IMG/VR virus record: IMGVR_UViG_3300042524_000214
Coordinates: 38,663 to 102,662 of that record
Direction: 5' to 3' (one strand)
DNA: 64,000 nucleotides
DNA from: a virus
Taxonomy: Duplodnaviria; Heunggongvirae; Uroviricota; Caudoviricetes
Part shown: piece after piece, positions 5,873 to 63,545 of the stretch
How the letters are laid out: the number at the start of each line of letters is the position of its first letter
Position numbering within the stretch: the stretch's first letter is position 1
Position numbers and translations under genes: made by a program
The notes under the pieces: generated by a model
The model's input: only the letters and a program-made list of their open reading frames with translations
Told to the model about the DNA's origin: nothing
Database searches by the model: none

Positions 5873-6904
5873 CTAATCAAAAATATTTTGTTTTATTTTT
5901 TTACAAAACTCATACATATCTTCAAAATAATTATCACTTCTTCCCATATTTTCAAACCTTGTTACTAATGTAAAATTGTCTTTACTATAGGGCTTACTAT
6001 TATCAATCCTATCAACTGATATAGCTCTAAGTTTATCTTTTGCAGTTAGGTCAAAAGGTATTTTTAAAAAATATGACAAACCATTTTGTTCATTATATTT
6101 ATCAACAATATTTTTAGTTGAAATTTCTGGTTTAGTGTGACCTCTACCAGCACTACAAGAGTTCATGCTATATTTAAGATTACTTAACCAAGTTTCTCCA
6201 TTTTTTGTAATGTTAGCCAAATATAAATTATCTATATTTAAGTTGTTTCTATCGTCATCTAAAAATATAATTCTAAAATCTTTTTTGTTAAATTCACCAA
6301 AAAAAGAAGTATACAGTTTTTCATAAAACCTACTACCTTTATTTACACGTTCTTTTTTTACAATCCTACATAGTTTTTTATTATAGACTTCCCCCAAAGA
6401 GCTTACCATAAATTTATTATTATCACATAAATCAACCCATTTTTTATCTATATCTAAAGATATATCATACCTATCAGTTTTATACTTTTTAGCAGCTTTT
6501 TTACGAGTACAACCGCAACTTTTAGACATACCAGACTCTAATGAGTTTAGTGTAATATCTTTTACAGTACCACAAACACACTCTACTTTTATAGTCCTAA
6601 GTGAGTTTCCTTTAGTATCAATGTAGTCAAACCCTTCAGATTTATAAGTCCAACTACCCCAAGTTTTATTAACAACATCTTTTTTTAAAGATATGCAACC
6701 ACAAGATTTAGTATCCCCACGTTTTAGATATTTATAACTAAATTCTTTTATGTTACCACATGAACATTTACAAAGGACTTGCTTATAATAACTAGTTCCC
6801 ATTTTTTTAGAGGGTAACATTTCTATAATTGTTAAATTTGAATGTACCTCCCCGACAACATTTATTTTATCTACTCTCATAATTATTTTTTTACAAAGGT
6901 ACAA
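5873..6904 (-). CDS. HNH homing endonuclease with N-terminal Cys-rich zinc-finger repeats
   Basis: C-terminal VDRIDNSKPYSKDNFTLVTRFENMGRSD resembles the phage HNH_3 motif (IDxIDGN...NL...EN); multiple CxxC/CGC pairs N-terminally; only minus-strand gene in a + strand region. Confidence 0.65.
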   Translation of the reverse strand: MYLCKKIIMRVDKINVVGEVHSNLTIIEMLPSKKMGTSYYKQVLCKCSCGNIKEFSYKYLKRGDTKSCGCISLKKDVVNKTWGSWTYKSEGFDYIDTKGNSLRTIKVECVCGTVKDITLNSLESGMSKSCGCTRKKAAKKYKTDRYDISLDIDKKWVDLCDNNKFMVSSLGEVYNKKLCRIVKKERVNKGSRFYEKLYTSFFGEFNKKDFRIIFLDDDRNNLNIDNLYLANITKNGETWLSNLKYSMNSCSAGRGHTKPEISTKNIVDKYNEQNGLSYFLKIPFDLTAKDKLRAISVDRIDNSKPYSKDNFTLVTRFENMGRSDNYFEDMYEFCKKIKQNIFD

Positions 6905-31597: not shown

Positions 31598-32410
31598 ATG
31601 AAGAAATTTTCAGGGTTATTTTTAGTGTTAGTATTCGCAGTGTTTATGACATCATGTGAAAGAGTTGCTCCAAACTATTATGGAGTATTAATGGAAAATT
31701 ATGGTAAGAATGGGAAAGATGACTATACCAAACAACAAGGTAGAGTAACCACATTATCACCGGGGACAGAGTTATTTCAAGTACCGGCTTGGGAGCAAAG
31801 AGGTCAATTTACCGATGATGAGGGGCAAGACAGAGTATTGCAAGTAAAAGCAGCTGATAACACAGCATTTACGTCAAAACCTTTATATTCATACAAAGTA
31901 ATGGAAAACCGAGTTGTAGATGTAGTCTTTCAAAATTCAAGATTAGGTTCGGGAGATGATTTTATGACAGCTTTACAAGATAATGTATTAGAGCCAAGAA
32001 TTTACGATATTATTAAAGAGGCTTCAAGAAGTTATACAACAGAACAATTAATGGCAAACGGAGGTTCGCTGAAGTTTGAGCAATACGTTCAAGATATAGT
32101 TACGAAAGAGTTTGAAAAGTCAGGATTACAATTAGTGAGTTTCAGTTTAAATCTAGATTTCTCTAGCAAAGTAAAAGCTAAGATTGATAGTCGTAATGAA
32201 GTTAACACAAATATATCTGTATTAGACCAAGAGATTGCCGAACAAAAGAAGAAAAACGAATTAGAGGTATTAAAAGCTGAGCAAAACAAAATTAGAAGTG
32301 CCGGTATTACTCCTCAGTTGTTACAAGAGCAAGCAATACGTAAATGGAATGGTCAATTACCAACAACAGTTTCAGGTGGTACTATCCCCTTTGTTAAGAC
32401 AGTAAACTAA
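31598..32410 (+). CDS. SPFH/band-7 domain lipoprotein
   Basis: Lipobox-like LVFAVFMTSC; body resembles stomatin/HflK-type SPFH domain followed by a charged coiled coil (VLDQEIAEQKKKNELEVLKAEQNKIRS). Confidence 0.5.
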   Translation: MKKFSGLFLVLVFAVFMTSCERVAPNYYGVLMENYGKNGKDDYTKQQGRVTTLSPGTELFQVPAWEQRGQFTDDEGQDRVLQVKAADNTAFTSKPLYSYKVMENRVVDVVFQNSRLGSGDDFMTALQDNVLEPRIYDIIKEASRSYTTEQLMANGGSLKFEQYVQDIVTKEFEKSGLQLVSFSLNLDFSSKVKAKIDSRNEVNTNISVLDQEIAEQKKKNELEVLKAEQNKIRSAGITPQLLQEQAIRKWNGQLPTTVSGGTIPFVKTVN

Positions 32411-32790
32411 CCTTTCATAGTCGAATTGTGAGTTTAAAACTGACTAGAGTGATACAAAACATAACCTGTACCCCCGAAAAACTCGTATTAGCAACCACGA
32501 AAGTGTAGTCCCCTGATAGTATCAGTGGTAGTTGTAAGATAAGCAGGTTATCCCGATATAAAGGGGTAGTAGAATAGGGGAAATGTGGTCTTACATCCAC
32601 TTGAAACTTGTAAGATTGGTCTCTGATGTTAGGGAACGCTTGTGAGTGGCAGGGAATAAGAACTCTCATTTATAGTAGAAACAACATCTCCCCAGTTTCT
32701 TGTGGTGTGCACACCGAGGATTTATAAGGAGGTTGAGACCGAGTGACGTTAGCCTTTTGTAACTCGGCAATAAACAGAAAAAGGCAACTT

Positions 32791-32864
32791 GGTTCGGTAG
32801 CTCAGTTGGATAGAGCAACAGATTTCTAATCTGTAGGTCGTAGGTTCGAGCCCTACCCGAATCA
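32791..32864 (+). tRNA. tRNA-Arg (anticodon TCT)
   Basis: Acceptor GGTTCGG/CCGAATC, D-arm GCTC-AGTTGGATA-GAGC, anticodon arm ACAGA-TTTCTAA-TCTGT, T-arm GTAGG-TTCGAGC-CCTAC; 74 nt, no encoded CCA. Confidence 0.9.
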
Positions 32865-32990
32865 CGATTGTTGGAACCTCTCGTATGAAAGAAGAACGCT
32901 AACCCAATGTTCCTGTCGGGTTAGACCTAGCATCAAGGACTTGGCAAGTTTTCGGTAGCCGAGCAGATGTAACCGATGACACTGGGAAAG

Positions 32991-33074
32991 ACTAGAATAT
33001 TGCGGAGTAGTCAGTAGATGGAAGCTTGTGAGGCTCATAACCTCATGTCGAAAGACCCCGTTGGTTCGAGTCCA
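32991..33074 (+). ncRNA. tRNA-like element with CAU anticodon arm and long variable arm; possible pseudo-tRNA
   Basis: Anticodon arm TGAGG-CTCATAA-CCTCA; variable hairpin GTC-GAAA-GAC; T-arm GTTGG-TTCGAGT-CCAAC; acceptor TGCGGAG/CTCCGCT with a T1-T72 mismatch. No canonical D-arm found. Confidence 0.35.
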
Positions 33075-33106
33075 ACCTCCGCTACGAAATAGTTTGTTGA
33101 TGTGTT

Positions 33107-33142
33107 AGTGAATTTTGTTTGGACGGGGGTTCGACTCCCCCC
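33107..33142 (+). ncRNA. tmRNA-like T-arm plus 3' acceptor strand (candidate acceptor piece of a permuted tmRNA)
   Basis: GTTTGGACGGGGGTTCGACTCCCCCCACCTCCA-CAA closely resembles tmRNA 3' ends (B. subtilis GTTTGGACGCGGGTTCGACTCCCGCCGTCTCCACCA). Confidence 0.45.
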
Positions 33143-33241
33143 ACCTCCACAAGAGTTTCCTTGAACTATAAACAAGGTGGTGGAGTCGCTGATTATCAGA
33201 TGACCTAGGCTTTATCGGTTGTGCCTCGAACAACTGAACAT

Positions 33242-33385
33242 GGGGGTGCTTGGTTTTGACAGCAATTTAGTAGGTAGCAAGGAGAACGAATTTCAAAAAT
33301 AAACGACAACGTTTACCAACTTGGTGGCGTACAGCTTAGAGCTGTAGCGTAATCACGCTCTAGGGGGAGCGAAATCCCCCTAAAT
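33242..33385 (+). ncRNA. candidate tmRNA coding piece
   Basis: 5' acceptor strand GGGGGTG pairs with the upstream CACCTCC giving a G3-U70 pair. D-loop analogue GGTTTTGAC (tmRNA consensus GGATTCGAC). Short stop-terminated frame ...NDNVYQLGGVQLRAVA-TAA at 33278-33352. Confidence 0.35.
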
Positions 33386-33459
33386 GTCCTAGTAGCTCAG
33401 TTGGTTAGAGCAGCTGACTCATAATCAGCAGGTCACAGGTTCGAGCCCTGTCTAGGACA
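33386..33459 (+). tRNA. tRNA-Met (anticodon CAT; could be elongator Met or Ile-lysidine)
   Basis: Acceptor GTCCTAG/CTAGGAC, D-arm GCTC-AGTTGGTTA-GAGC, anticodon arm GCTGA-CTCATAA-TCAGC, T-arm ACAGG-TTCGAGC-CCTGT; 74 nt. Confidence 0.9.
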
Positions 33460-33714
33460 CTTAGCAAGGCATAAACGATAAGGAAAAGCTGTCACAGGTT
33501 TATGTTAAGTTGCAGACAGACCGAAATGCTTACGGTTAACGGGGCTAACTCATATAGTCCAGAGAGCAAAATCTAACGAGTGACTGATGGAAAGACATCA
33601 ACATGGAAAGAGTAGTAGTTGAGGTCGCTCCAAAAGCTACGAGTGGGATTAACGATGACTTAGTATTACTGCCCGATATTCTAGATAAGGCTTGGTAAGT
33701 GATTAAGTATGTAG

Positions 33715-33750
33715 TTAACACCGGGGGTTCGATTCCTCCCTCTTTTACAA
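33715..33750 (+). ncRNA. isolated tRNA-like T-arm plus 3' acceptor strand (3' fragment or 3' half of a split/intron-containing tRNA)
   Basis: GGGGG-TTCGATT-CCTCC followed by CTCTTTT-A; a complementary 5' strand GAAAGAG lies at 33606-33612, but no canonical cloverleaf in between. Confidence 0.3.
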
Positions 33751-33760
33751 ATTAGTTAGT

Positions 33761-34345
33761 ATGAAAAAATTAGAATTAAAAGTTCTTCTGAAAGAACAAG
33801 AGGAGAGTCTACAAGAGTTAGAATATGGTTATACCAAACTAGAAGAGTATATAGCTATAAGAAAACAAATTGGAGAGTTGCAAGACAAAGGTAGAGCTAT
33901 TGAGAGAAAGTGGTATGATGAAAACCAAGAATCTGCTAGAAGTTGTAGAGCCGAAATACGTGAGTATAAGGAACTGATTGACTACAAAGGACATCTTAAC
34001 CCTAAGAACTACTGCCAGGCTGTCCAAGACTGCTACAATGCTTATTTTAGAGGTACTACTTCTTATCGTTGGAGACAACTTGTTTGGGTTTCAGATGACC
34101 AAAGATATTGTGTCTTAAAAATGCCTTCACATAGTGAGTACACAGATAGAATGTCCGGTGTTGTATCTAGTCCCTCAGAGTGGGTATTAGTGGAATGTTC
34201 TATTTTTAAGAACGATAGAAATGTACTAGTATACCACAATACTCCCGGAGTATTGCTAAAAAGAGATGGTGGAAGATGGAGTAAAAGATTTGAACAAGAA
34301 ATTTTAGAAATAATTAACAAGCACGAAAATGAACGACCTATTTAA
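33761..34345 (+). CDS. hypothetical protein
   Basis: 194 aa; junction ACAAATTAGTTAGTATG at start. Confidence 0.5.
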   Translation: MKKLELKVLLKEQEESLQELEYGYTKLEEYIAIRKQIGELQDKGRAIERKWYDENQESARSCRAEIREYKELIDYKGHLNPKNYCQAVQDCYNAYFRGTTSYRWRQLVWVSDDQRYCVLKMPSHSEYTDRMSGVVSSPSEWVLVECSIFKNDRNVLVYHNTPGVLLKRDGGRWSKRFEQEILEIINKHENERPI

Positions 34346-38535: not shown

Positions 38536-38738
38536 AAAATTTAGTATTGATTTTTATGGGGGTTTTAGTAATGTCTTGCTCCTCAGTTGAAGAAAGAATA
38601 AAAGATTACTCTTATACAGATGAGTGGCACTATGTAAACACCGAAAGGTACCAATTGTATAAAACAAAAGCCGGTAAAAAGTACATCATAGTGCTTAACA
38701 ATAGACAAACTAATTTTAAACGTAAATACATTAACTAG
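38532..38738 (+). CDS. small lipoprotein
   Basis: MKNLVLIFMGVLVMSCSS lipobox-type signal. Confidence 0.45.
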   Translation: MKNLVLIFMGVLVMSCSSVEERIKDYSYTDEWHYVNTERYQLYKTKAGKKYIIVLNNRQTNFKRKYIN

Positions 38739-40773: not shown

Positions 40774-40982
40774 CATTCACGCTAAGCTTAGATGAAAAAA
40801 GGGATTACGATTGGGCGTGCAAAGTCATGCTATCTTGTAGAACAAAGGAACAAAATGATAATGCTTTTGAATTAGTTACTTTGTTTTATAAAAAACACGA
40901 AAACTTAACAATGACAGGTTCTCTAATGAACTTATCAACAGAAGTAGAACAAAAAATAAAATTAAATGAAATTACAAATTAA
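40770..40982 (+). CDS. hypothetical protein
   Basis: 70-aa ORF. Confidence 0.4.
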   Translation: MTFTLSLDEKRDYDWACKVMLSCRTKEQNDNAFELVTLFYKKHENLTMTGSLMNLSTEVEQKIKLNEITN

Positions 40983-41673
40983 CAACAAACAGAATATATT
41001 TTTCTGTTCAGACCCCCATTACGGACATGCCGGCATTGTCCGGGGGACTTCCACTTGGGAAGGTAAAAGAGGATGCCGAGATTTTGATACTCTTGAAGAG
41101 CACGACCAAGCTTTAATAGACGGAATAAACAAAACTGTTGGAGAAGATGACATTTTGTTCTGCCTCGGGGATTGGAGTTTTGGTGGTTATAAAAATGGGG
41201 ATAATGTAAGTAATATAAAAAAATTCCGTGAACAAATTATATGCAAAAATGTACACTTGGTACTTGGGAATCACGATACGGAGATTGCTAAAAACAAGAA
41301 CGGGGAGAAGGAGTTATTTTCTTCTGTAAACCCTTATTTAGAAGTGTTGATTGTTGACCAACCAAAAGAGCAGAATGAGGTACCATTGAGATATAATCTT
41401 GTACTTTGCCATTATGCTATGCGAGTTTGGAATAAGTCTTTCCGTGGTTCATGGATGCTTTATGGGCACAGCCACGGTAACTTAGACGAGTTCACACCAT
41501 TGACAGCTAACCCCGATTGGATTGGCGACCAATACTACACCAAAAGTTACAGAACTATGGATGTGGGTTTTGATGGTCATCCAGAATTTAGACCTTATAG
41601 CTTTCAAGAGCTGAAAGAAATTATGCAAAGAAGAAACGTAACAATAGAAGTTGACCACCATAACGGAGAATAG
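40966..41673 (+). CDS. calcineurin-like metallophosphoesterase
   Basis: SDPHYGH (DxH), GDWSFGG (GDxxD), LVLGNHD (GNHD/E), CHYAM. Confidence 0.65.
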   Translation: MKLQINNKQNIFFCSDPHYGHAGIVRGTSTWEGKRGCRDFDTLEEHDQALIDGINKTVGEDDILFCLGDWSFGGYKNGDNVSNIKKFREQIICKNVHLVLGNHDTEIAKNKNGEKELFSSVNPYLEVLIVDQPKEQNEVPLRYNLVLCHYAMRVWNKSFRGSWMLYGHSHGNLDEFTPLTANPDWIGDQYYTKSYRTMDVGFDGHPEFRPYSFQELKEIMQRRNVTIEVDHHNGE

Positions 41674-44132: not shown

Positions 44133-44663
44133 ATGAAACACGTAATGATTGACATTGAGACTATGGGAAACATGTCTCACTCAGCTATCGTAAGCATAGG
44201 TGCTGTACGATTTGACTTAAAAACCGGAGAGATTGGAGAAAAATTCTACATGAATGTAGATTTACAGTCTTGTCTTGATGCTGGTTTGATTATTAATGCC
44301 GACACTTTGATGTGGTGGTTAAACCAAAGTGATGCAGCTCGTAAAAAGATTACTGAAAAAGGACATACTTTGAATAAAGCATTGATTTCTTTATCAGCCT
44401 TTGTAACTAAAGATGACCAAGTTTGGGGCAACTCGGCTAGATTTGATTTAGGTATTTTATCAGATGCTTTAAATGCTCTAGGTATGACAATTCCATGGGA
44501 TTTCCGAAAAGAGCGTTGTGTTCGCACATTGGTTTCTTTTGCTCCGGAAGTAAAAGATGCAGAACCAAATACCGGAGTTGCACACGATGCTTTAGCAGAC
44601 TGTATCTTTCAAATAAATTATTGTTCAAAAATATTTAACAAATTAAACAATGGCAGCCGTTAA
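44133..44663 (+). CDS. DEDDh 3'-5' exonuclease (DnaQ/RNase T-like)
   Basis: MIDIETMG (Exo I), GNSARFD (Exo II region), HDALAD (H-x4-D Exo III). Confidence 0.65.
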   Translation: MKHVMIDIETMGNMSHSAIVSIGAVRFDLKTGEIGEKFYMNVDLQSCLDAGLIINADTLMWWLNQSDAARKKITEKGHTLNKALISLSAFVTKDDQVWGNSARFDLGILSDALNALGMTIPWDFRKERCVRTLVSFAPEVKDAEPNTGVAHDALADCIFQINYCSKIFNKLNNGSR

Positions 44664-52020: not shown

Positions 52021-52254
52021 ATGCAAGTAGAAATTAACTATTTAGAAGTGCCACTTACTGTAAGTGGTACATATTATGAGGGAGACCCTCAAGTAATGTA
52101 TGACAGTAACGGAGAAGGTTATCCGGGAAGTCCAGCTGAGTTCGAGATTATAAAAATAACCGTATCAGATAGTGATGTGGATATTTGGGAGCTTTTCTCA
52201 AATAAGCAAATTGACGAAATAACTGAGTTAGTAATTGAAAAAACAGAAGAGTAA
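52021..52254 (+). CDS. hypothetical acidic protein
   Basis: 77-aa ORF. Confidence 0.45.
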   Translation: MQVEINYLEVPLTVSGTYYEGDPQVMYDSNGEGYPGSPAEFEIIKITVSDSDVDIWELFSNKQIDEITELVIEKTEE

Positions 52255-53291
52255 TGAAAAAAATGATTAAATTCCCGTCAATTGAACAATTCCGTTCAAC
52301 GGTATCAAATGTAAAAAGGCATTACGCTTTTACTGGTATAGATGAAAATGGTGAGGCTATTTACGACAACAATTTACCTAAGCCAAAATTGGTATTTAAA
52401 GGAACTGTGAAACTTCATGGGACTAATGCCGCTATTTGTTATAATAGTGTAAGTGGTTTTTGGGCTCAATCTCGTGAAAACATTATTACATCACAAAAAG
52501 ATAATGCAGGATTTGCTTTCTTTGCTGAGTCTAAAATTGATGTACTTATCGAATTAGTTAAGATGGTAGCAGAAAGAGAGAATGTTGATTTGTCAAACAA
52601 TACTATTACTATCTACGGAGAGTGGTGTGGTGGTAATATTCAAAAAGGGGTTGGTATTTCTAACTTACCTAAATCTTTCTTTATTTTTGGGGTTAAAGTT
52701 AGCCCTTTTGAAATTGAAGGTGCCGAAAAACAGCCGGTAGCTTATTGGGTTGATTATTCAGACCTTGGAAACAGCGAAGATAGGATTTACAATATTGATG
52801 ATTTTCAGACGTACAGTATAGAGGTTGATTTTAATTACCCAGAGCTTGTACAAAATAAATTGTCAGAGTTGACTATCGCTGTCGAAGAGGAGTGCCCAGT
52901 GGCAAAAGCTTTTGGCTTCTCTGGAATTGGTGAGGGTATTGTTTGGACTACTAACCTAAATGGGGAAAGTTACCGATTCAAAGTAAAAGGTGAAAAACAC
53001 TCTGCTTCTAAAGTAAAAGTGTTAGCCGCTGTAGATGTTGAGAAAGTAGAGAGTATTCAAAAATTTGTTGAATATGCTGTTACTGAAAGTCGATTAAACC
53101 AAGCTATCGAAAATGTGTTTCCTAATAATGAGCCAGTAAGTATGCAAAAGTTTGGGGAAATTGTTAGATGGATGGTAAACGATATTATCAAAGAAGAGAT
53201 GGATGTTTTGGTTGAAAATGGTTTAGAGCCTAAATTAGTTAATTCAAAAATATCTTTTAAAACAAAAGAAATGTTTTTAAATAAATTGTAA
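52254..53291 (+). CDS. ATP-dependent RNA ligase, Rnl2 family
   Basis: Nucleotidyltransferase motif I VKLHGTNAA (T4 Rnl2 EKIHGTNFS); YGEWCGGNIQKGV parallels Rnl2 FGEFAGPGIQKNV. Confidence 0.6.
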   Translation: MKKMIKFPSIEQFRSTVSNVKRHYAFTGIDENGEAIYDNNLPKPKLVFKGTVKLHGTNAAICYNSVSGFWAQSRENIITSQKDNAGFAFFAESKIDVLIELVKMVAERENVDLSNNTITIYGEWCGGNIQKGVGISNLPKSFFIFGVKVSPFEIEGAEKQPVAYWVDYSDLGNSEDRIYNIDDFQTYSIEVDFNYPELVQNKLSELTIAVEEECPVAKAFGFSGIGEGIVWTTNLNGESYRFKVKGEKHSASKVKVLAAVDVEKVESIQKFVEYAVTESRLNQAIENVFPNNEPVSMQKFGEIVRWMVNDIIKEEMDVLVENGLEPKLVNSKISFKTKEMFLNKL

Positions 53292-57818: not shown

Positions 57819-60800
57819 TTATAAATCTTCTTCATCTAGGAACCAAGCTACTGGAATAAGTGCCTCTTCCTTGTTAAAATAATCGTATGAATCTCTCTGA
57901 GATTTCAAGTTTTCTGCATTCCAAACATCAAAGGCAGGTTTAGCTCCAACAACATTTTTTATAAAATAAGATTGTTGTTTTGTTAATCCTTTGTATCTAC
58001 CCCTATCAATAACGCTTGTATCTAGTAAATCTCCAAGTTTGGAAAGGTTTTCTATCTTCTGTAAACCTACAATAGGCTCTTTGAAAGATGCGTAAAATTC
58101 TCCAAAAACTCCTAATTGAGAAGAAGCTACCTCGGTTGTTGTTCTTTCAAACAAATACGCTGAAAGTTGTGCTCCCCATAAATCTTCTTCATCATCTGCC
58201 CAACTAGATAAAAATATAGTTAGTAAAAATAAACCGGATAAAAATAAGACTTCTTTACTAACTCGTTCAAGATTCTTTCTTGTTGTTTCGTCCCCGTTAA
58301 CATACAAGTCTTTAAACTCTTGCATTATACCTTTTAGCTTTCCTTTTTTGTAGCCCATATTGATTGCATCTACAAAATAGTTAGCAGCTGTAACGTAAGT
58401 TCCCTCTTCTACTTTACCAGTTTGAAAGTTTATGTGTCTTCTTTTAAAACGTGTAGCAGCAGATATTGATAACCAACCTTTGTGAGTCATTGTAAATCTA
58501 CCTAAAACATCTCTTTGTAAAGTTGTTCTTTCCTCATTTGTAATTTGACCATCAATTCTTTCAACTAACTTTCTGGTTTTAGACATGACCCCTAACTCTA
58601 TGTTTCTGAAATCTTTTCTAAATTCCTCATCATTAGTCCTATTCATATCTCTAGCCAAAGCCTCGAAATCATAAGTCATAGTTGGGTAAGGTTTACCATT
58701 CTTATCTTCTGTAAGGATGTAGTTGTAGAAAGTTTTACCTTCTAAATTTTTCCAAGCTGCGGTGACATCTTTAATGTTGGCTCTTGAACCATTTGCATTA
58801 TTAAACATTACTTTAAACTGCTCAAAATCTACCACTTTTCCTTCATAAATTCTATTGCCATAAACTTGAGATAGCATAGCTTTTGATAAAGGTACAAAGT
58901 TACCAGCTGTGTGCAAAATATACATAGACCTACTTAAAGCCCTTGGTGTTTTAGCGTACATAGAATTTTCAAATCTACGGTCTAAATCAAAAATACCGAA
59001 GTATTCCCCCATTAAGGATAATTTAGCTCTAGAATTAAGTTCTAAACTCTCTTTCATTGCTGGTGTAGACAACTTCAAAAATTCTTTATTTGCTAAAGTA
59101 TAAGAACCAGAATCTACGTATTGATTTAATAATCTTTCTATGATAAGAGAAGCTTCCGCTGTCATCCAAGAAGTTATAGGTACAATAAAGTTTCTACCAA
59201 GTGAGTTATTTCTAAGCCAAGTGTGGAGTTTATTAATAACTTTTGTGACATCTACTTGTCCTAAAACAGGTAAATTAACCCTCCAGTTTCTTCTTTCTTT
59301 TACTCCAAATAAGTTATAATCCATATAGGATTTAAACATCTTATAAGTATTGGTAGCCTGAGCTGATTTACCTCCTGGATAAGCTCTGTTTAAAGCTTTA
59401 TCATTAAGTGTTGCAAACTCAGAGTATCTTTCTTTTTTAGATTTATACAACTCTGCTTGTTGAGCCATTAATACCGATGTATAGAATAAATCTTCAGACA
59501 CAAATTCTTTCTCAGAAAGCCTGTTCAAGAAGTATTTAGGAATTACTCTAAAGCCTTCATTTCTTACAAAAGCCTCTCCTTTATTTGCTTCATCACCAAA
59601 AGCTTGTTCATCTACTCTAAATCTTAAAAAATCCTGCCATATATCTTTTACTGCACTTTTTGGGTTTTTCAAAGTATCAACAGTTTTGTTGAAACTGGTT
59701 TTTGAAATTTGTGGTGCCAAGTATAAATTATGTAACCCTAATTCTCCGTAAGAACGTAAAGTATCTTTTTGGAAACTTATATACTCTTTGTACAACTCAA
59801 ACATATCTTTGTTAGTTGTTGCTTGTATATTTCCATCAGCATCTAGTATAGGGTTATTTTGAGAATCTCTTTGTGGGTTAAACATTTGTATAAATCCGCT
59901 GTTTGAGTATTGGGATAGCTTAGGCTGTCTTGAACCTCCCTCGAAATCCTCTCTATAGCTGCTATTTTTAAACTTGATTTCCCCCATTTCATAGTAAGAG
60001 AAGTTGTTACTAACTTTCACATCGTCTCTATTATTTAATGAATTAACTAATCCAAAAACATTACCATTACCATTTTTTAAGTTACTATAAAATTCAGCTA
60101 AGCCTACTGGGGCAAAAGCTTTGTAATACATAGCTATCTTTGATTCGGCATACTTTAAAACTATATCGTCAACTTCTTCTTTGATAATATCCTCTCTACC
60201 TACTATATTTTCTATCAACTTTCTGTTTGCAGCAGTTATAGGTCTATTTCTAGTAAAGTTTTCTAAAGCATCTCTTAACCTTTCTACTCTTCTTCTATTA
60301 GTTAAAGTCATATTCTTCAAGGCAAAATCTATTTTGTCTGAAGTTTCTGTATACCCTTTGTCCGTTAAGGCATCATAGTAAGCTTGGTTTGGGGTTACTT
60401 CGGAAAGTTTTTCTGCCTCTTCTCCAATTTCTTGTATTGTGCTTTTTTGGAATGTTTTGTATAAATCAGAATAAAGCTCATCTATTCTTTCCGATAAATC
60501 CAGTACGCTTTTTCTAACGTCATCCGGCATTTCGTCTGCCAAAATATTAGTGTAGTTTCTAGAATCCTGGAATTGTTTTAATATCGCTTTCCTTTTATCT
60601 AAACTGTCTTTATAGTCTTTTATTCTTAATATCATTAGCTCATCGGCTTCCGGGTCTTGCTCATATAAATCAAGTTCCGTCATCAAATTTTCAGAAGAGT
60701 TAAAACTGTTCCAAAAATCATTTGAGAATCCTACAGTAGAGTTTAATAAAAAGAACTCAACAGCCGCTTCTCTACCCTCTTCTGCTTCTATTCTTTCAAG

Positions 60801-63545
60801 CTCCTCTAAGAATTTAGGTGCTAGTTTATCAACATCAATTTTTTGACCCGATAAAGCGGCTTCTCTTTTCTTTTGTTCAAGTAAATCAAGGTCTAATTTA
60901 GTTATCTCAAAAGCTGTTCTTGAAGAGGTGTCATTCTCATTAGCTAATATGTAATACGTACCATTAATTTCTAATGAGTCGCTGGAAGGAAAATCTACTT
61001 TTCTAATACCAGCTTTTAAACTACCGTCATTTTCAAAAAATGATTTTAGTTGTTTTCTTTTTAAATTAAAACCATCCAGCTCGTGTTTATCTTGAAGAGT
61101 GTACCTTGGCAAACCTTTTTCTGTTTTTACCCTAGCCATAAGCTCCCCCAAATCCATAGACAAAAGGCTTAGTTCTGTTTTAGTTGTTTCGGAAATACCT
61201 AGTCTACTATAACGGTCTTCTCTTTCTTGGTAGTACTCATCTGTAAAGCTTCTTTCAACAATGCTATTTACAGCTTTGCTTACTTCTTGCTTGTATAAAA
61301 ATTCATTACCTCCATCTTTTTCATCTTTAATTTTAGGCAAACTGTTTGTGTTAAGCCCCTCAATTATTTCTTCATCAGTCATAGTGTAACCACTATATTT
61401 TTTGAAGTTTTCTACTTTTATATTAAGGACATCTTTTTCAAAATTAGCCCAATCGTACATACTTAATATGTAACCATCTTTATCAATAAATTTAGGTAAG
61501 TCTTTTTCTGTAAAGCCTAATTCTCTCATCTTCATCTGGAAGGACTTAACTCTATTTATGTAAGACAATTCCGCATCTCTGTTCATATCAGAGATTACAG
61601 TGCTCAACATATTCAATATAGGGTCGTTTGCATGTGAAAGTTGACCAAAAACTGCATACACCATTTGTGTATCTCTCATGGCTACATCTATAGCTTTCTC
61701 TAATTCAAGTCTCAAATCATCGCTTAGATTATGTCTTACCATTAACCTATTTACAATTTCATCTATAATTTTAGTTTCGGTAAGTTGTACTTTTGCTGTA
61801 ACCCCAGAAATAGATGTTTCCACATTTTCTAAATCTGTAATTAAAGTTTTTAATGATGGGTCATTTTGTATCAATACCCTAAGTTTGCTTAATAAAGGAC
61901 TGATTTCGTCTTTTAAACTACGAAGAACAATTCCTTCTTCATTAGACAAAGTTTTACCTTTTTTGTTTGCGTTATCAATAGCAAATCCAACATATCTAGC
62001 TTGGCTTTTTGCTAAAGCTATCAAATCCAAAGCAGAGCTTTTTGTAAGCTCTTTTTCTAATATGTCATTAAGTTTTTGTATTGTAGCTCTGGAACCTCTA
62101 CCTGCTTTTCTTAGGTTTTTTTCTTGTTCAATCAAAGCTCTAACCAATTGTTTTGATACAGAAGCTTTAGCATCTAAAGCCGGGTCTCCACTTTGGTTTA
62201 ACTGATACATTCTAAACTTCTTACCTTTAGCTTTTTCTAAATTAAGGTATCTGTTTACATCTTTAGTTATAAGTAAGTCTTCAACTTTATCTGTTAACTT
62301 TGCTATATCGTCATAAACATTTTGATTCAAAGTAATAGCATCAAAAAACTTTCTGAATAAATCAAAAATTCTAGATATTATGCTAGATTGAATTTCTGTT
62401 TTGCCATCTATATTAAATCTATTCTGTAATGATTTTGCTAATTCTTTACCTAGTATTTCTCTTCTAACTAAATCTTCTATTTCGTCAAAAGACATATCAG
62501 GATTTTCGTAGGTATACACCTCTCTATATTGCTCTGATAATTCTTGATAAGTTTGTGTTTTGTGAATATTTCTAAGAATATTTTCAATTTCAGAATCCCC
62601 CCAAGTTTCCACTATAAAGTGGGCTGTTTCTTCTAGTAATCCGTCTGTAGATATGGCTCCTTCTCTATAAGCTATAACTTGTTGAGATATATCTAATAGT
62701 GTTTTAGCATCCGGAGAAACTCCATTTCTTATTTCGTAGTTTTTTATGTAGTTATCTATAGACATTACCTTAACTCCCATTGAGTTCAGTAAGTCTAATA
62801 ATCTTAGCTTTAAAGAGTTTTCGTCTGAGTCTATGGTTTCGCCACTCAACCCGGAAGGTAAAACTTCTCTAACTAGTTTGTTTAAAAATAAAGATTTACC
62901 TTGAGTTTCCCCAAATTTTGACTGCAAATCTTCCATAGAGGATTTTGAAATCTCCTCTTTTGTAGCTGTTTTGCCATTAGACTCAATCTTATTTTTGCTG
63001 TCTTTTAGTTCTATTCTACCATCCTTGTATATTTTTGTGTTGGCTTTACCTAAAAGTACTATGCCTTCTTCTTTTATTATTTGTTCATTGGCTAACTGTA
63101 GGATTTGGTTGGTACCTGCTGCTTTGTGGTAACTTTTGCCAGCTTCTATTAACCTTTCGTCAGATAAAACATCTTCTTTTATAAGGCTGTTTATAAAACC
63201 TTCGTATGTTTCTACGTTTGTGTTTGAAGATACTTTTTGTAGTGATACAAATTTGTCATCTACTAATATACCTGTTTCAATATCCCCACCAGTAGAGTCT
63301 TTTAAAGCTTCCTTGAAAGAATCAAACATGCCATTTTTATCTGACTTAAAAGTTAAGCCAGGCTCTGTTTCTGTGTTATTACCAATACTGTCAGAATAGA
63401 TGTTTTTAAAAGTCTCTAAAGCTTCTTCTAAAGAGTTTGTATGGGGTAATCTAGCAATTTGCTTAAACAGTCTACTCTCTTCACCATTTGGTGTAAGTAC
63501 ATTGTCTATCGCCCCATTTTTATTAAATTTTATTGTACAAGCCAT
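57819..63545 (-). CDS. very large (1908 aa) protein, probably virion-associated (tape-measure-like or internal/ejection protein); function unknown
   Basis: Uninterrupted 5.7-kb ORF on the minus strand, coiled-coil rich, one hydrophobic segment (VLFLSGLFLLTIFLS) near the C-terminus; own promoter at 63565-63596. Confidence 0.5.
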   Translation of the reverse strand: MACTIKFNKNGAIDNVLTPNGEESRLFKQIARLPHTNSLEEALETFKNIYSDSIGNNTETEPGLTFKSDKNGMFDSFKEALKDSTGGDIETGILVDDKFVSLQKVSSNTNVETYEGFINSLIKEDVLSDERLIEAGKSYHKAAGTNQILQLANEQIIKEEGIVLLGKANTKIYKDGRIELKDSKNKIESNGKTATKEEISKSSMEDLQSKFGETQGKSLFLNKLVREVLPSGLSGETIDSDENSLKLRLLDLLNSMGVKVMSIDNYIKNYEIRNGVSPDAKTLLDISQQVIAYREGAISTDGLLEETAHFIVETWGDSEIENILRNIHKTQTYQELSEQYREVYTYENPDMSFDEIEDLVRREILGKELAKSLQNRFNIDGKTEIQSSIISRIFDLFRKFFDAITLNQNVYDDIAKLTDKVEDLLITKDVNRYLNLEKAKGKKFRMYQLNQSGDPALDAKASVSKQLVRALIEQEKNLRKAGRGSRATIQKLNDILEKELTKSSALDLIALAKSQARYVGFAIDNANKKGKTLSNEEGIVLRSLKDEISPLLSKLRVLIQNDPSLKTLITDLENVETSISGVTAKVQLTETKIIDEIVNRLMVRHNLSDDLRLELEKAIDVAMRDTQMVYAVFGQLSHANDPILNMLSTVISDMNRDAELSYINRVKSFQMKMRELGFTEKDLPKFIDKDGYILSMYDWANFEKDVLNIKVENFKKYSGYTMTDEEIIEGLNTNSLPKIKDEKDGGNEFLYKQEVSKAVNSIVERSFTDEYYQEREDRYSRLGISETTKTELSLLSMDLGELMARVKTEKGLPRYTLQDKHELDGFNLKRKQLKSFFENDGSLKAGIRKVDFPSSDSLEINGTYYILANENDTSSRTAFEITKLDLDLLEQKKREAALSGQKIDVDKLAPKFLEELERIEAEEGREAAVEFFLLNSTVGFSNDFWNSFNSSENLMTELDLYEQDPEADELMILRIKDYKDSLDKRKAILKQFQDSRNYTNILADEMPDDVRKSVLDLSERIDELYSDLYKTFQKSTIQEIGEEAEKLSEVTPNQAYYDALTDKGYTETSDKIDFALKNMTLTNRRRVERLRDALENFTRNRPITAANRKLIENIVGREDIIKEEVDDIVLKYAESKIAMYYKAFAPVGLAEFYSNLKNGNGNVFGLVNSLNNRDDVKVSNNFSYYEMGEIKFKNSSYREDFEGGSRQPKLSQYSNSGFIQMFNPQRDSQNNPILDADGNIQATTNKDMFELYKEYISFQKDTLRSYGELGLHNLYLAPQISKTSFNKTVDTLKNPKSAVKDIWQDFLRFRVDEQAFGDEANKGEAFVRNEGFRVIPKYFLNRLSEKEFVSEDLFYTSVLMAQQAELYKSKKERYSEFATLNDKALNRAYPGGKSAQATNTYKMFKSYMDYNLFGVKERRNWRVNLPVLGQVDVTKVINKLHTWLRNNSLGRNFIVPITSWMTAEASLIIERLLNQYVDSGSYTLANKEFLKLSTPAMKESLELNSRAKLSLMGEYFGIFDLDRRFENSMYAKTPRALSRSMYILHTAGNFVPLSKAMLSQVYGNRIYEGKVVDFEQFKVMFNNANGSRANIKDVTAAWKNLEGKTFYNYILTEDKNGKPYPTMTYDFEALARDMNRTNDEEFRKDFRNIELGVMSKTRKLVERIDGQITNEERTTLQRDVLGRFTMTHKGWLSISAATRFKRRHINFQTGKVEEGTYVTAANYFVDAINMGYKKGKLKGIMQEFKDLYVNGDETTRKNLERVSKEVLFLSGLFLLTIFLSSWADDEEDLWGAQLSAYLFERTTTEVASSQLGVFGEFYASFKEPIVGLQKIENLSKLGDLLDTSVIDRGRYKGLTKQQSYFIKNVVGAKPAFDVWNAENLKSQRDSYDYFNKEEALIPVAWFLDEEDL

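Follow-up and report, generated by a model that had tools for sequence, protein, structure and literature searches.

The tRNA cluster of phage T4 ends in a tRNA-Arg followed by two further RNAs, RNAD (119 nt) and RNAC (139 nt), the second of which carries a 3'-terminal T arm and acceptor strand. The functions of RNAD (species 2) and RNAC (species 1) are described as unknown (PMC3014915, PMC9697503). Two-piece transfer-messenger RNAs (tmRNAs) have been described in aquatic phages, where they account for 53 of 133 unique phage tmRNAs (PMC9004378). Mycobacteriophage DS6A carries a tmRNA that consists of the tRNA-like domain (TLD) only, and another molecule like it is a strong inhibitor of tmRNA, perhaps because it titrates SmpB (PMC4131195, PMC11915505). 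Here, we analyzed a 1.35-kb stretch (32411-33760) of a 64,000-nt window, the whole of which covers positions 38,663 to 102,662 of IMG/VR record IMGVR_UViG_3300042524_000214, a Caudoviricetes virus. We are fairly confident that it forms an operon of translation-related RNAs punctuated by tRNAs, in a large phage with kin among metagenomic phage contigs as long as 373 kb, comprising a tRNA-Arg, an initiator-derived tRNA(CAU), a two-piece tmRNA, a tRNA-Met, a pseudoknotted RNA that we call X, and a tRNA-shaped RNA that we call TLS.

The island lies between an SPFH/Band-7 gene (31598-32410) and an open reading frame (ORF) starting at 33761. It holds no plus-strand ORF longer than 33 aa, in agreement with a sequence-only reading of the window, which had taken it for a non-coding RNA island with unusual tRNA-like RNAs. 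That reading had also named two canonical tRNAs, tRNA-Arg(TCT) and tRNA-Met(CAT), and the Rfam scores of both bear it out (Table 1). ARAGORN called these two at the coordinates in the table, along with a second tRNA-Met(cat) at 33001-33085 and a permuted tmRNA. The searches with ARAGORN and Rfam thus went beyond the canonical pair, and covariation-supported structures were present as well; the two-piece tmRNA (33086-33385) and the pseudoknotted RNA (33461-33604) had been absent from the sequence-only reading. At E <= 10, Rfam searches of 32300-33900 and 33455-33760 gave no match for X, TLS, the upstream leader, or the spacer at 32866-33000.

For comparison, we used 73 related IMG/VR loci retrieved with the SPFH protein, from contigs of up to 365 kb; phage contig loci used for comparison are labeled L001-L112. 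Against 50,697 GenBank phage records, BLAST of the island segments returned no close relative and only generic matches to tRNA and tmRNA T arms. Each RNA is identified and conserved, the folds are supported by covariation, the tmRNA is permuted in order and has a G3:U70 pair, and none of the five tRNA-like 3' ends in the island encodes CCA. Every island RNA abuts a tRNA-like end, and hairpins with a GAAAGA loop stand 4-10 nt ahead of tRNA-like 5' ends.

Table 1. Features of the RNA island, in coordinates of the window
Feature	Position	Strand	Basis and parts
Upstream non-coding stretch ("leader")	32411-32790	+	Conserved parts only at 32456-32489 and ~32536-32668, in three to four relatives
tRNA-Arg(UCU), canonical, CCA not encoded	32791-32865	+	ARAGORN; Rfam tRNA 71.4 bits
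135-nt spacer	32866-33000	+	Found in this genome only; no homologue in any fetched locus
Initiator-type tRNA(CAU) variant	33001-33084	+	ARAGORN tRNA-Met; Rfam tRNA 33.7 bits
tmRNA acceptor piece	33086-33149	+	P2 5' strand; T arm 33125-33141; CACCUCC 3' strand 33142-33148; discriminator A33149; no CCA
tmRNA intervening segment, 92 nt	33150-33241	+	Alignment and extracted pieces
tmRNA coding piece	33242-33385	+	Acceptor 5' strand GGGGGUG 33242-33248; tag 33305-33352; closing hairpin 33363-33380
tRNA-Met(CAU), G1-C72	33386-33460	+	ARAGORN; Rfam 74.2 bits
RNA X, ~145 nt, H-type pseudoknot	33461-33604	+	22 IMG/VR contigs; alignment
tRNA-shaped RNA TLS, 142 nt	33606-33747	+	Alignment; eight loci, three of these copies from metagenomes

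RNA X and the tRNA-shaped RNA TLS

Where a contig includes the sequence upstream of X, X follows directly on the 3' end of a tRNA, with a single exception: in L074, a homing-endonuclease ORF separates the two. Its pseudoknot is formed by the helices 33464-33476/33498-33513 and 33488-33493/33515-33520, followed by hairpins at 33521-33535 and 33542-33560 and by a 3' hairpin, TGATG-GAAAGA-CATCA, at 33585-33600. A 20-nt core of X occurs in 22 IMG/VR contigs. Across 13 distinct sequences and 25 pairs, 99.7% of cells in the alignment are paired, against 25-37% in slid controls, and 7 pairs show compensatory change. The 3' hairpin alone has a fixed GAAAGA loop on a stem that occurs in six different, covarying sequences. 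Conservation is higher in X than in the tRNA-like genes on either side of it. Its downstream neighbor differs between loci and can be TLS, a one-piece tmRNA, a tRNA-like gene with a long arm, or some other sequence. A search with a model of X found matches in the close clade only and none in bacterial genomes.

Several other identities for X were considered and set aside. The single genome match to its 20-mer, in a Bacteroidota metagenome-assembled genome, was due to chance, as it had no RNA-family hit and agreed with the X model at 46 of 149 positions. A frame in X that reads DKEKLSQVYVKLQTDRNAYG and a stop codon, which ARAGORN mistook for a tag in L014, might have been a second mRNA-like tag; stops break it in L079, L084, and L094, and its changes follow the covariation of the helices. 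Strings that recall RNase P RNA (GGAAAGAC, AGAGAGCA, and GCUUAC) come with no match to an RNase P model, and GGAAAGAC lies in a hairpin loop. Pairing of the 3' hairpin with the 5' leader of the tmRNA (inverted repeat I9) shows inconsistent covariation (L090), and X is also present without a permuted tmRNA.

Other elements were seen around X in related phages. In L002, a 144-aa ORF with an HNH motif (L002:5820-6254) is inserted between tRNA-Met and X. A tRNA-Leu-like scaffold, AGTCAGGTGGCGGAATTGGTAGACGC...CCTGTCCTGACTA, stands beside X at L008:7201-7281 and L003:7545-7640 and in L079, L082, L087-L089, and L094; its copies measure 91-96 nt and have very different anticodon and variable regions, and ARAGORN gave them the identities Thr, Pro, Cys, or undetermined. 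GOLLD RNA (RF02032, 285-309 bits) lies in the same tRNA-rich island of three related phages (L082:3644-4051, L087:1998-2418, and L089:4335-4742, minus strand), ~2-2.5 kb downstream of X. It is absent from our window, where no part of the island matches it.

TLS has the outline of a tRNA, with a 7-bp acceptor stem (33606-33612/33740-33746), a 4-bp D stem with a large loop (33615-33618/33637-33640), a canonical T arm (33723-33739), and A33747 at its end. In place of an anticodon arm, it has a 78-nt irregular helix (33645-33722) that abuts the T stem without a variable loop. Among its 37 pairs, compensatory change is seen in 11, and 96.7% of cells are paired (slid controls, 43-56%). The T arm, the CTCTTTT strand, and the upstream GAAAGAG complement had all been noticed in the sequence-only reading, which thought of a 3' fragment as one option; the parts are real, but they belong to a whole conserved RNA. 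The companion idea of a split or intron-containing tRNA fails, as the 78 nt between the D and T arms form one long covarying helix and match no intron family. TLS has no conserved anticodon loop, lacks a 5-bp anticodon stem with a 7-nt loop, and gave no match to RF00005 at E <= 10. Searches with a model of TLS returned generic tRNAs only, plus T4 rnaC at an insignificant score. Since its 3' end, GGRGGTTCGATTCCYCCCTYTTTTA, was not found in exact form in any of 185,579 species genomes (among which the true host may not be included), the suggestion that it is an attP site or a remnant of a host tRNA loses support; no integrase was found among the ORFs tested.

TLS was found only alongside the permuted tmRNA, in all eight loci that have this tmRNA and in none of the ~11 X-bearing loci that do not. 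As the eight loci form one subclade, this co-occurrence may reflect shared ancestry.

By layout, the nearest analogue of X and TLS is the T4 pair RNAD and RNAC. In both phages, a tRNA precedes an RNA of ~120-145 nt, which precedes an RNA of ~140 nt whose 3' end is formed by a T arm and acceptor strand, and TLS, like RNAC, is the last RNA of a phage tRNA cluster. There is no detectable homology: the TLS model scores 13.8 bits (E = 0.66) on T4 rnaC, no better than it does on ordinary tRNAs. The predicted minimum free energy (MFE) fold of RNAC has a long hairpin on the D-arm side and an anticodon-like hairpin, whereas TLS has a single 78-nt arm replacing the anticodon arm. X has a pseudoknot, of which the MFE fold of RNAD shows no trace, though the MFE method cannot predict pseudoknots.

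Oversized (100-140 nt) tRNA-shaped RNAs are common in the tRNA arrays of related phages. Examples are L060:6838-6974, which has G3:U70 and a very stable fold (z = -4.3); L001:8305-8427, with two T-arm-like hairpins, and L001:9750-9860; L032:2112-2220; L069:10684-10797; and L075:11159-11265.

The two-piece tmRNA and the initiator-type tRNA(CAU) variant

The tmRNA at 33086-33385 is circularly permuted and in two pieces according to both ARAGORN and the Rfam family RF04321 (tmRNA_permuted), which matches 33092-33352 with 57.3 bits against a gathering score of 47 and gives 51.1-64.6 bits on L002, L003, L014, and L090. Its T arm and acceptor 3' strand lie upstream of the acceptor 5' strand and tag. 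The 7-bp acceptor stem GGGGGUG/CACCUCC yields a G3:U70 pair that is invariant in all eight loci with this tmRNA (the window, L002, L003, L014, L090, and L101-L103). Between these loci, the T arm covaries (GGGGG/CCCCC, GGGAG/CUCCC, CCGAG/CUCGG), as do the first P2 helix (UUG/CAG, CAA/UUG, GUAA/UUAC) and, among relatives, the hairpin holding the last tag codons. The tag ORF has a resume codon and reads (A)DNVYQLGGVQLRAVA and a stop codon. Five tag variants were found (...QLRAVA, ...QRRFAA, ...QRIAA by an in-frame 3-nt deletion, ...QKRFAA, and ...QMRSAA), so that tags end in AVA, FAA, IAA, or SAA, and there are synonymous changes too. This pattern shows coding constraint on the predicted tag ORF. 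Relatives L005-L010 and L013 have a one-piece tmRNA at the same site after the SPFH gene.

The tmRNA of the window joins the phage two-piece tmRNAs that are already known, such as those of OM43 phage Melnitz and the pelagiphages (PMC9004378; RF04321). It shares with them the order of acceptor piece before coding piece, the G3:U70 pair, the T arm, a tag that ends in aliphatic residues and Ala, and an aquatic phage as carrier. It differs in falling below the thresholds of the alpha, beta, and cyano lineages, in a PK1 region that may be reduced, in the tRNA genes that directly flank it and can define its outer ends, in a strongly conserved intervening segment, and in having near relatives with a one-piece tmRNA at the same locus. 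One split tRNA-like gene does sit in the island, then, at a place other than the one where the sequence-only reading had looked for it.

We infer that the intervening segment is removed by processing. The first ~55 nt of it (33150-33205) are near-invariant in six of the eight genomes, beyond the conservation of the tRNA-like domain. It contains CCUUG-N9-CAAGG and the block GGUGGAGUC, which could pair with the acceptor 3' strand or T arm. In L101 and L103, the intervening segment is a different one and keeps the GGUGGAGUC block only, so that this block is present in all eight loci. Such conservation may point to a processing role or to an internal promoter (TATAAAC). In L090 and L102, the T arm of the acceptor piece is CCGGG-GGCAGAG/A-CCCGG, without a UUCGA motif, and the D-loop analogue of the coding piece has changed in parallel, with GAAAUAGUAUUGA replacing CUUGGUUUUGA.

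Directly upstream of the tmRNA is a tRNA(CAU) that the sequence-only reading had placed at 32991-33074. The perfect CAU anticodon arm, GNRA hairpin in the variable region, and T-T mismatch at 1-72 that it described were all recovered, with the boundaries shifted ~10 nt to the right, and the D arm, which it could not recognize, is weak. The mismatch, U1xU72, is followed by G2:C71, C3:G70, and G4:C69; the anticodon loop is CUCAUAA, and the hairpin inserted into the variable region is GUC-GAAA-GAC. A canonical class I body, with a 4-bp D stem containing A11:U24 and a short variable loop, was not found in this tRNA, whose D stem is mostly unpaired and whose variable region holds a 10-nt hairpin.

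Exact-pattern scans detected this variant in 10 IMG/VR phage contigs, giving five distinct sequences including that of the window. Compensatory changes occur in 8 of 20 pairs, with 96% of cells paired, and the only unpaired position is 1:72. It is mismatched in four of the five sequences (UxU, AxA, UxU, and UxU) and A-U in L112 only, and the 19 other pairs are always kept. G2:C71 and C3:G70, which are formylation determinants of bacterial initiator tRNA, are invariant in the family and the same in Escherichia coli metY. The pairs 29-31:39-41, which in bacterial initiator tRNA are three G-C pairs in a row, are A-U, G-C, and G-C in the window, and all three are G-C in L112 only.

Comparison with E. 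coli was made by alignment to metY, as BLAST of the variant against E. coli genomes gave no match. The two tRNAs share CAU in a CUCAUAA loop, the lack of a Watson-Crick 1:72 pair, G2:C71, C3:G70, G4:C69, A73, and G-C pairs adjoining the anticodon loop. The variant departs from metY in its inserted 10-nt GNRA hairpin, in a D stem that is largely unpaired yet invariant, in the A-U pair at 29:41 in four of the five variants, and in a mismatch that is UxU or AxA rather than CxA. The most fitting reading of the tRNA at 33001-33084 is that it derives from initiator tRNA and is conserved as such, and that it is not a pseudo-tRNA. The pseudo-tRNA idea had been raised for the unusual elements of the island, and it is contradicted by the helices of both the initiator variant and TLS: because these are kept through compensatory changes, both RNAs are under selection. 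The same initiator-type anticodon arm, GAGGCUCAUAACCUC, was seen in other aberrant bodies at L109:6350-6450 and L107:2370-2480, one with a single non-UUCGA hairpin replacing the T arm and one with a different long variable hairpin.

Proposed operon and competing explanations

We propose that the island would be transcribed as one precursor, in which host RNase P would cut at each tRNA-like 5' end. The cut at the 5' end of tRNA-Met would free the coding piece of the tmRNA, and the cut at the 5' end of TLS would free X. A 3' endonuclease would then trim the 3' ends and the CCA-adding enzyme would complete them, CCA being added after processing because it is missing from all five tRNA-like genes. 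The two tmRNA pieces would pair through the acceptor stem and P2 and be charged by alanyl-tRNA synthetase, and together with host SmpB, the charged tmRNA would rescue stalled ribosomes and add the tag A-DNVYQLGGVQLRAVA. The initiator-type tRNA would supply or replace the host initiator tRNA. X and TLS would build up as small RNAs that are stable, in the manner of T4 RNAD and RNAC, and the T arm and U-rich tail of TLS probably also end transcription. Our preferred guess is that X and TLS bind proteins that handle tRNA or tmRNA.

As a tentative extension, X and TLS could be a conserved phage RNA pair, the counterparts of T4 RNAD and RNAC, that acts on the translation or rescue machinery. TLS might then mimic a tRNA and be coupled to the two-piece tmRNA, with SmpB, EF-Tu, RNase P, or the CCA-adding enzyme among its possible binding partners, and the initiator variant might be phage-specific or defense-resistant.

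A number of points weigh against the operon and its parts as we describe them. The transcripts and their ends are predictions from sequence, and no sigma-70-like promoter was found. X and TLS are each known from one narrow clade, and the covariation in both rests on few independent lineages. Neither TLS (z = -1.1) nor the initiator variant (z = -1.3) has an unusual folding energy taken alone. The tmRNA fits none of the alpha, beta, and cyano lineage models (for beta_tmRNA, 37.5 bits where the gathering score is 84), and its T loop is not UUCGA in L090 and L102. The positions of the PK1 hairpin in the Rfam model align as a deletion, with no search made for another pseudoknot. A scan of 40 ORFs found no SmpB domain, and therefore rescue would rely on the host protein.

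Protection against host defenses is a competing account that we regard as doubtful. It holds that the initiator variant, TLS, and perhaps X are counter-defense RNAs, serving as nuclease-resistant replacements or decoys for tRNAs cut by anti-phage nucleases. Phage tRNAs overcome tRNA-cleaving defenses in other systems, e.g. Septu and tRNA-Tyr (PMC13096335), and the RNA ligase, metallophosphatase, and 3'-5' exoribonuclease encoded in the window may make up an RNA-repair set. The initiator variant keeps its acceptor and anticodon arms and remodels the D and variable regions, and related loci hold many oversized tRNA-like RNAs, with a homing endonuclease within the L002 array. The account suffers from having no direct tie to any defense system, and tRNA-shaped RNAs that lack an anticodon loop are not known to act in this way.

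Alternatively, X and TLS could lack any function in trans, with X a processing or stability cassette and TLS mainly the operon terminator with an RNase P site. The T arm of TLS followed by CUCUUUU (UUUUUU in relatives) does fit a terminator pattern, and the next gene begins 14 nt beyond A33747. X always lies between two substrates of RNase P or 3' processing, and L102 has a different spacer at that place, ending in the same hairpin. Yet a spacer or terminator needs neither a 145-nt pseudoknot with 7 compensated pairs nor a cloverleaf-like fold with 11, and X exceeds the flanking tRNA-like genes in conservation. We consider a purely cis-acting role unlikely.

A more specific possibility is that TLS is a tag-less derivative of tmRNA, a decoy for SmpB or other trans-translation factors that damps host tmRNA while the phage tmRNA works. 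The long arm abuts the T stem without a variable loop, as P2 does in tmRNA; TLS is restricted to loci with the permuted tmRNA; and L008 has a one-piece tmRNA after X, in the position of TLS. The TLD-only tmRNA of DS6A and the similar, inhibitory molecule also speak for it; the DS6A RNA, like TLS, is a phage RNA with a tRNA-like acceptor stem and T arm and no tag ORF (PMC4131195). TLS differs from the DS6A RNA in mostly lacking G3:U70, in having a D stem and a 78-nt arm, and in matching no tmRNA model. At 3:70, the window and six of the seven other copies have A-U, with G-U only in L014/L092, the 4-bp D stem covaries, and tmRNA models match the T arm alone (7.5 bits). The co-occurrence with the permuted tmRNA may also reflect one block inherited in one subclade. 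We rate this derivation as rather improbable.

It is highly improbable that the island consists of pseudo-tRNAs, a split or intron-containing tRNA, or attP remnants behind a leader that is a large structured RNA or intron. Such options fit the 110-nt distance that separates the T arm and acceptor strand from the matching 5' strand, and the GenBank phage records, which hold no close relative. Against them, the 3' end of TLS is unmatched in species genomes, TLS has neither a conserved anticodon loop nor an intron hit, compensatory changes rule out decay, and the leader is without a folding signal.

The tmRNA by itself is a routine gain in annotation. The larger gain lies in three new families, namely X, TLS, and the initiator variant, which are conserved and supported by covariation and share one compact operon beside a tmRNA; no Rfam family exists for X or TLS. 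An initiator tRNA that carries initiator marks on a remodeled body is relevant to the ways in which phages capture or safeguard translation initiation. An anticodon-less, tRNA-shaped RNA found only alongside a permuted tmRNA offers a testable hypothesis on the control of ribosome rescue during infection. The match in layout to RNAD and RNAC suggests that such RNAs are general in the tRNA clusters of large phages and provides a second system in which to study them. If X and TLS do act on translation, then together with GOLLD and the oversized tRNA-like RNAs they would indicate that phage tRNA islands carry a class of non-decoding RNAs built on tRNA scaffolds.

Upstream stretch, canonical tRNAs, and genome setting

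The 380-nt leader had been read as a structured element without an ORF, possibly a large structured RNA or an intron. Both palindromes cited for this are present, but the structure is not borne out, as its MFE is no better than that of shuffled sequences (z = +0.49), and neither stability nor the Rfam search supports a large RNA or intron there. The absence of an ORF holds for the plus strand, but the minus strand has an 84-aa ORF at 32415-32669. We rejected this ORF as a gene; it is missing in the relative L002, and two 44-nt indels inside it separate L002 and L014 from the window. Among the fetched loci, BLAST matched the leader in L002, L014, and L098 only. Its core, GGGAACGCTTGTGAGTGGCAG, is present in three IMG/VR contigs and in L098 lies directly 3' of a one-piece tmRNA.

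The spacer between tRNA-Arg and the initiator-type tRNA has an MFE z score of +0.25. It is closed, 5 nt upstream of the latter, by a hairpin, CTGG-GAAAGA-CTAG (32982-32995), whose motif GGAAAGAC is common to the 3' end of X. For the canonical tRNA-Met at 33386-33460, the best E. coli match is a gene annotated as tRNA-Met (83.6% over 61 nt). We read this tRNA, and the gene that it matches, as probably of the elongator and not the initiator type because of its G1-C72 pair and poor alignment to metY.

The window has a G+C content of ~35%, with genes almost all on one strand. Its products include a GroEL-like chaperonin, ribonucleotide reductase, ThyX, dUTPase, a DnaB-like helicase, a family A polymerase, and endonuclease VII, and the ribonucleotide reductase is ~60% identical to its counterparts in the jumbo phages Phosso and Atu_ph07. 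The 194-aa protein downstream of the island had no IMG/VR relatives by our pattern method. Within ~20 kb of the island lie the metallophosphatase (40966-41673), the Rv2179c-like 3'-5' exoribonuclease (44133-44663), and the RNA ligase (52254-53291), which may form an RNA repair or processing set.

Elsewhere in the window, a minus-strand ORF of 1908 aa (57819-63545) has no Pfam match, and another minus-strand ORF, at 5873-6904, is of the HNH type. An isolated tRNA at 2412-2488 with the anticodon ACU was called tRNA-Ser(act) by ARAGORN and scored 42.9 bits with Rfam; its A34 and its short variable arm, in place of a long one, are unusual for a serine tRNA.

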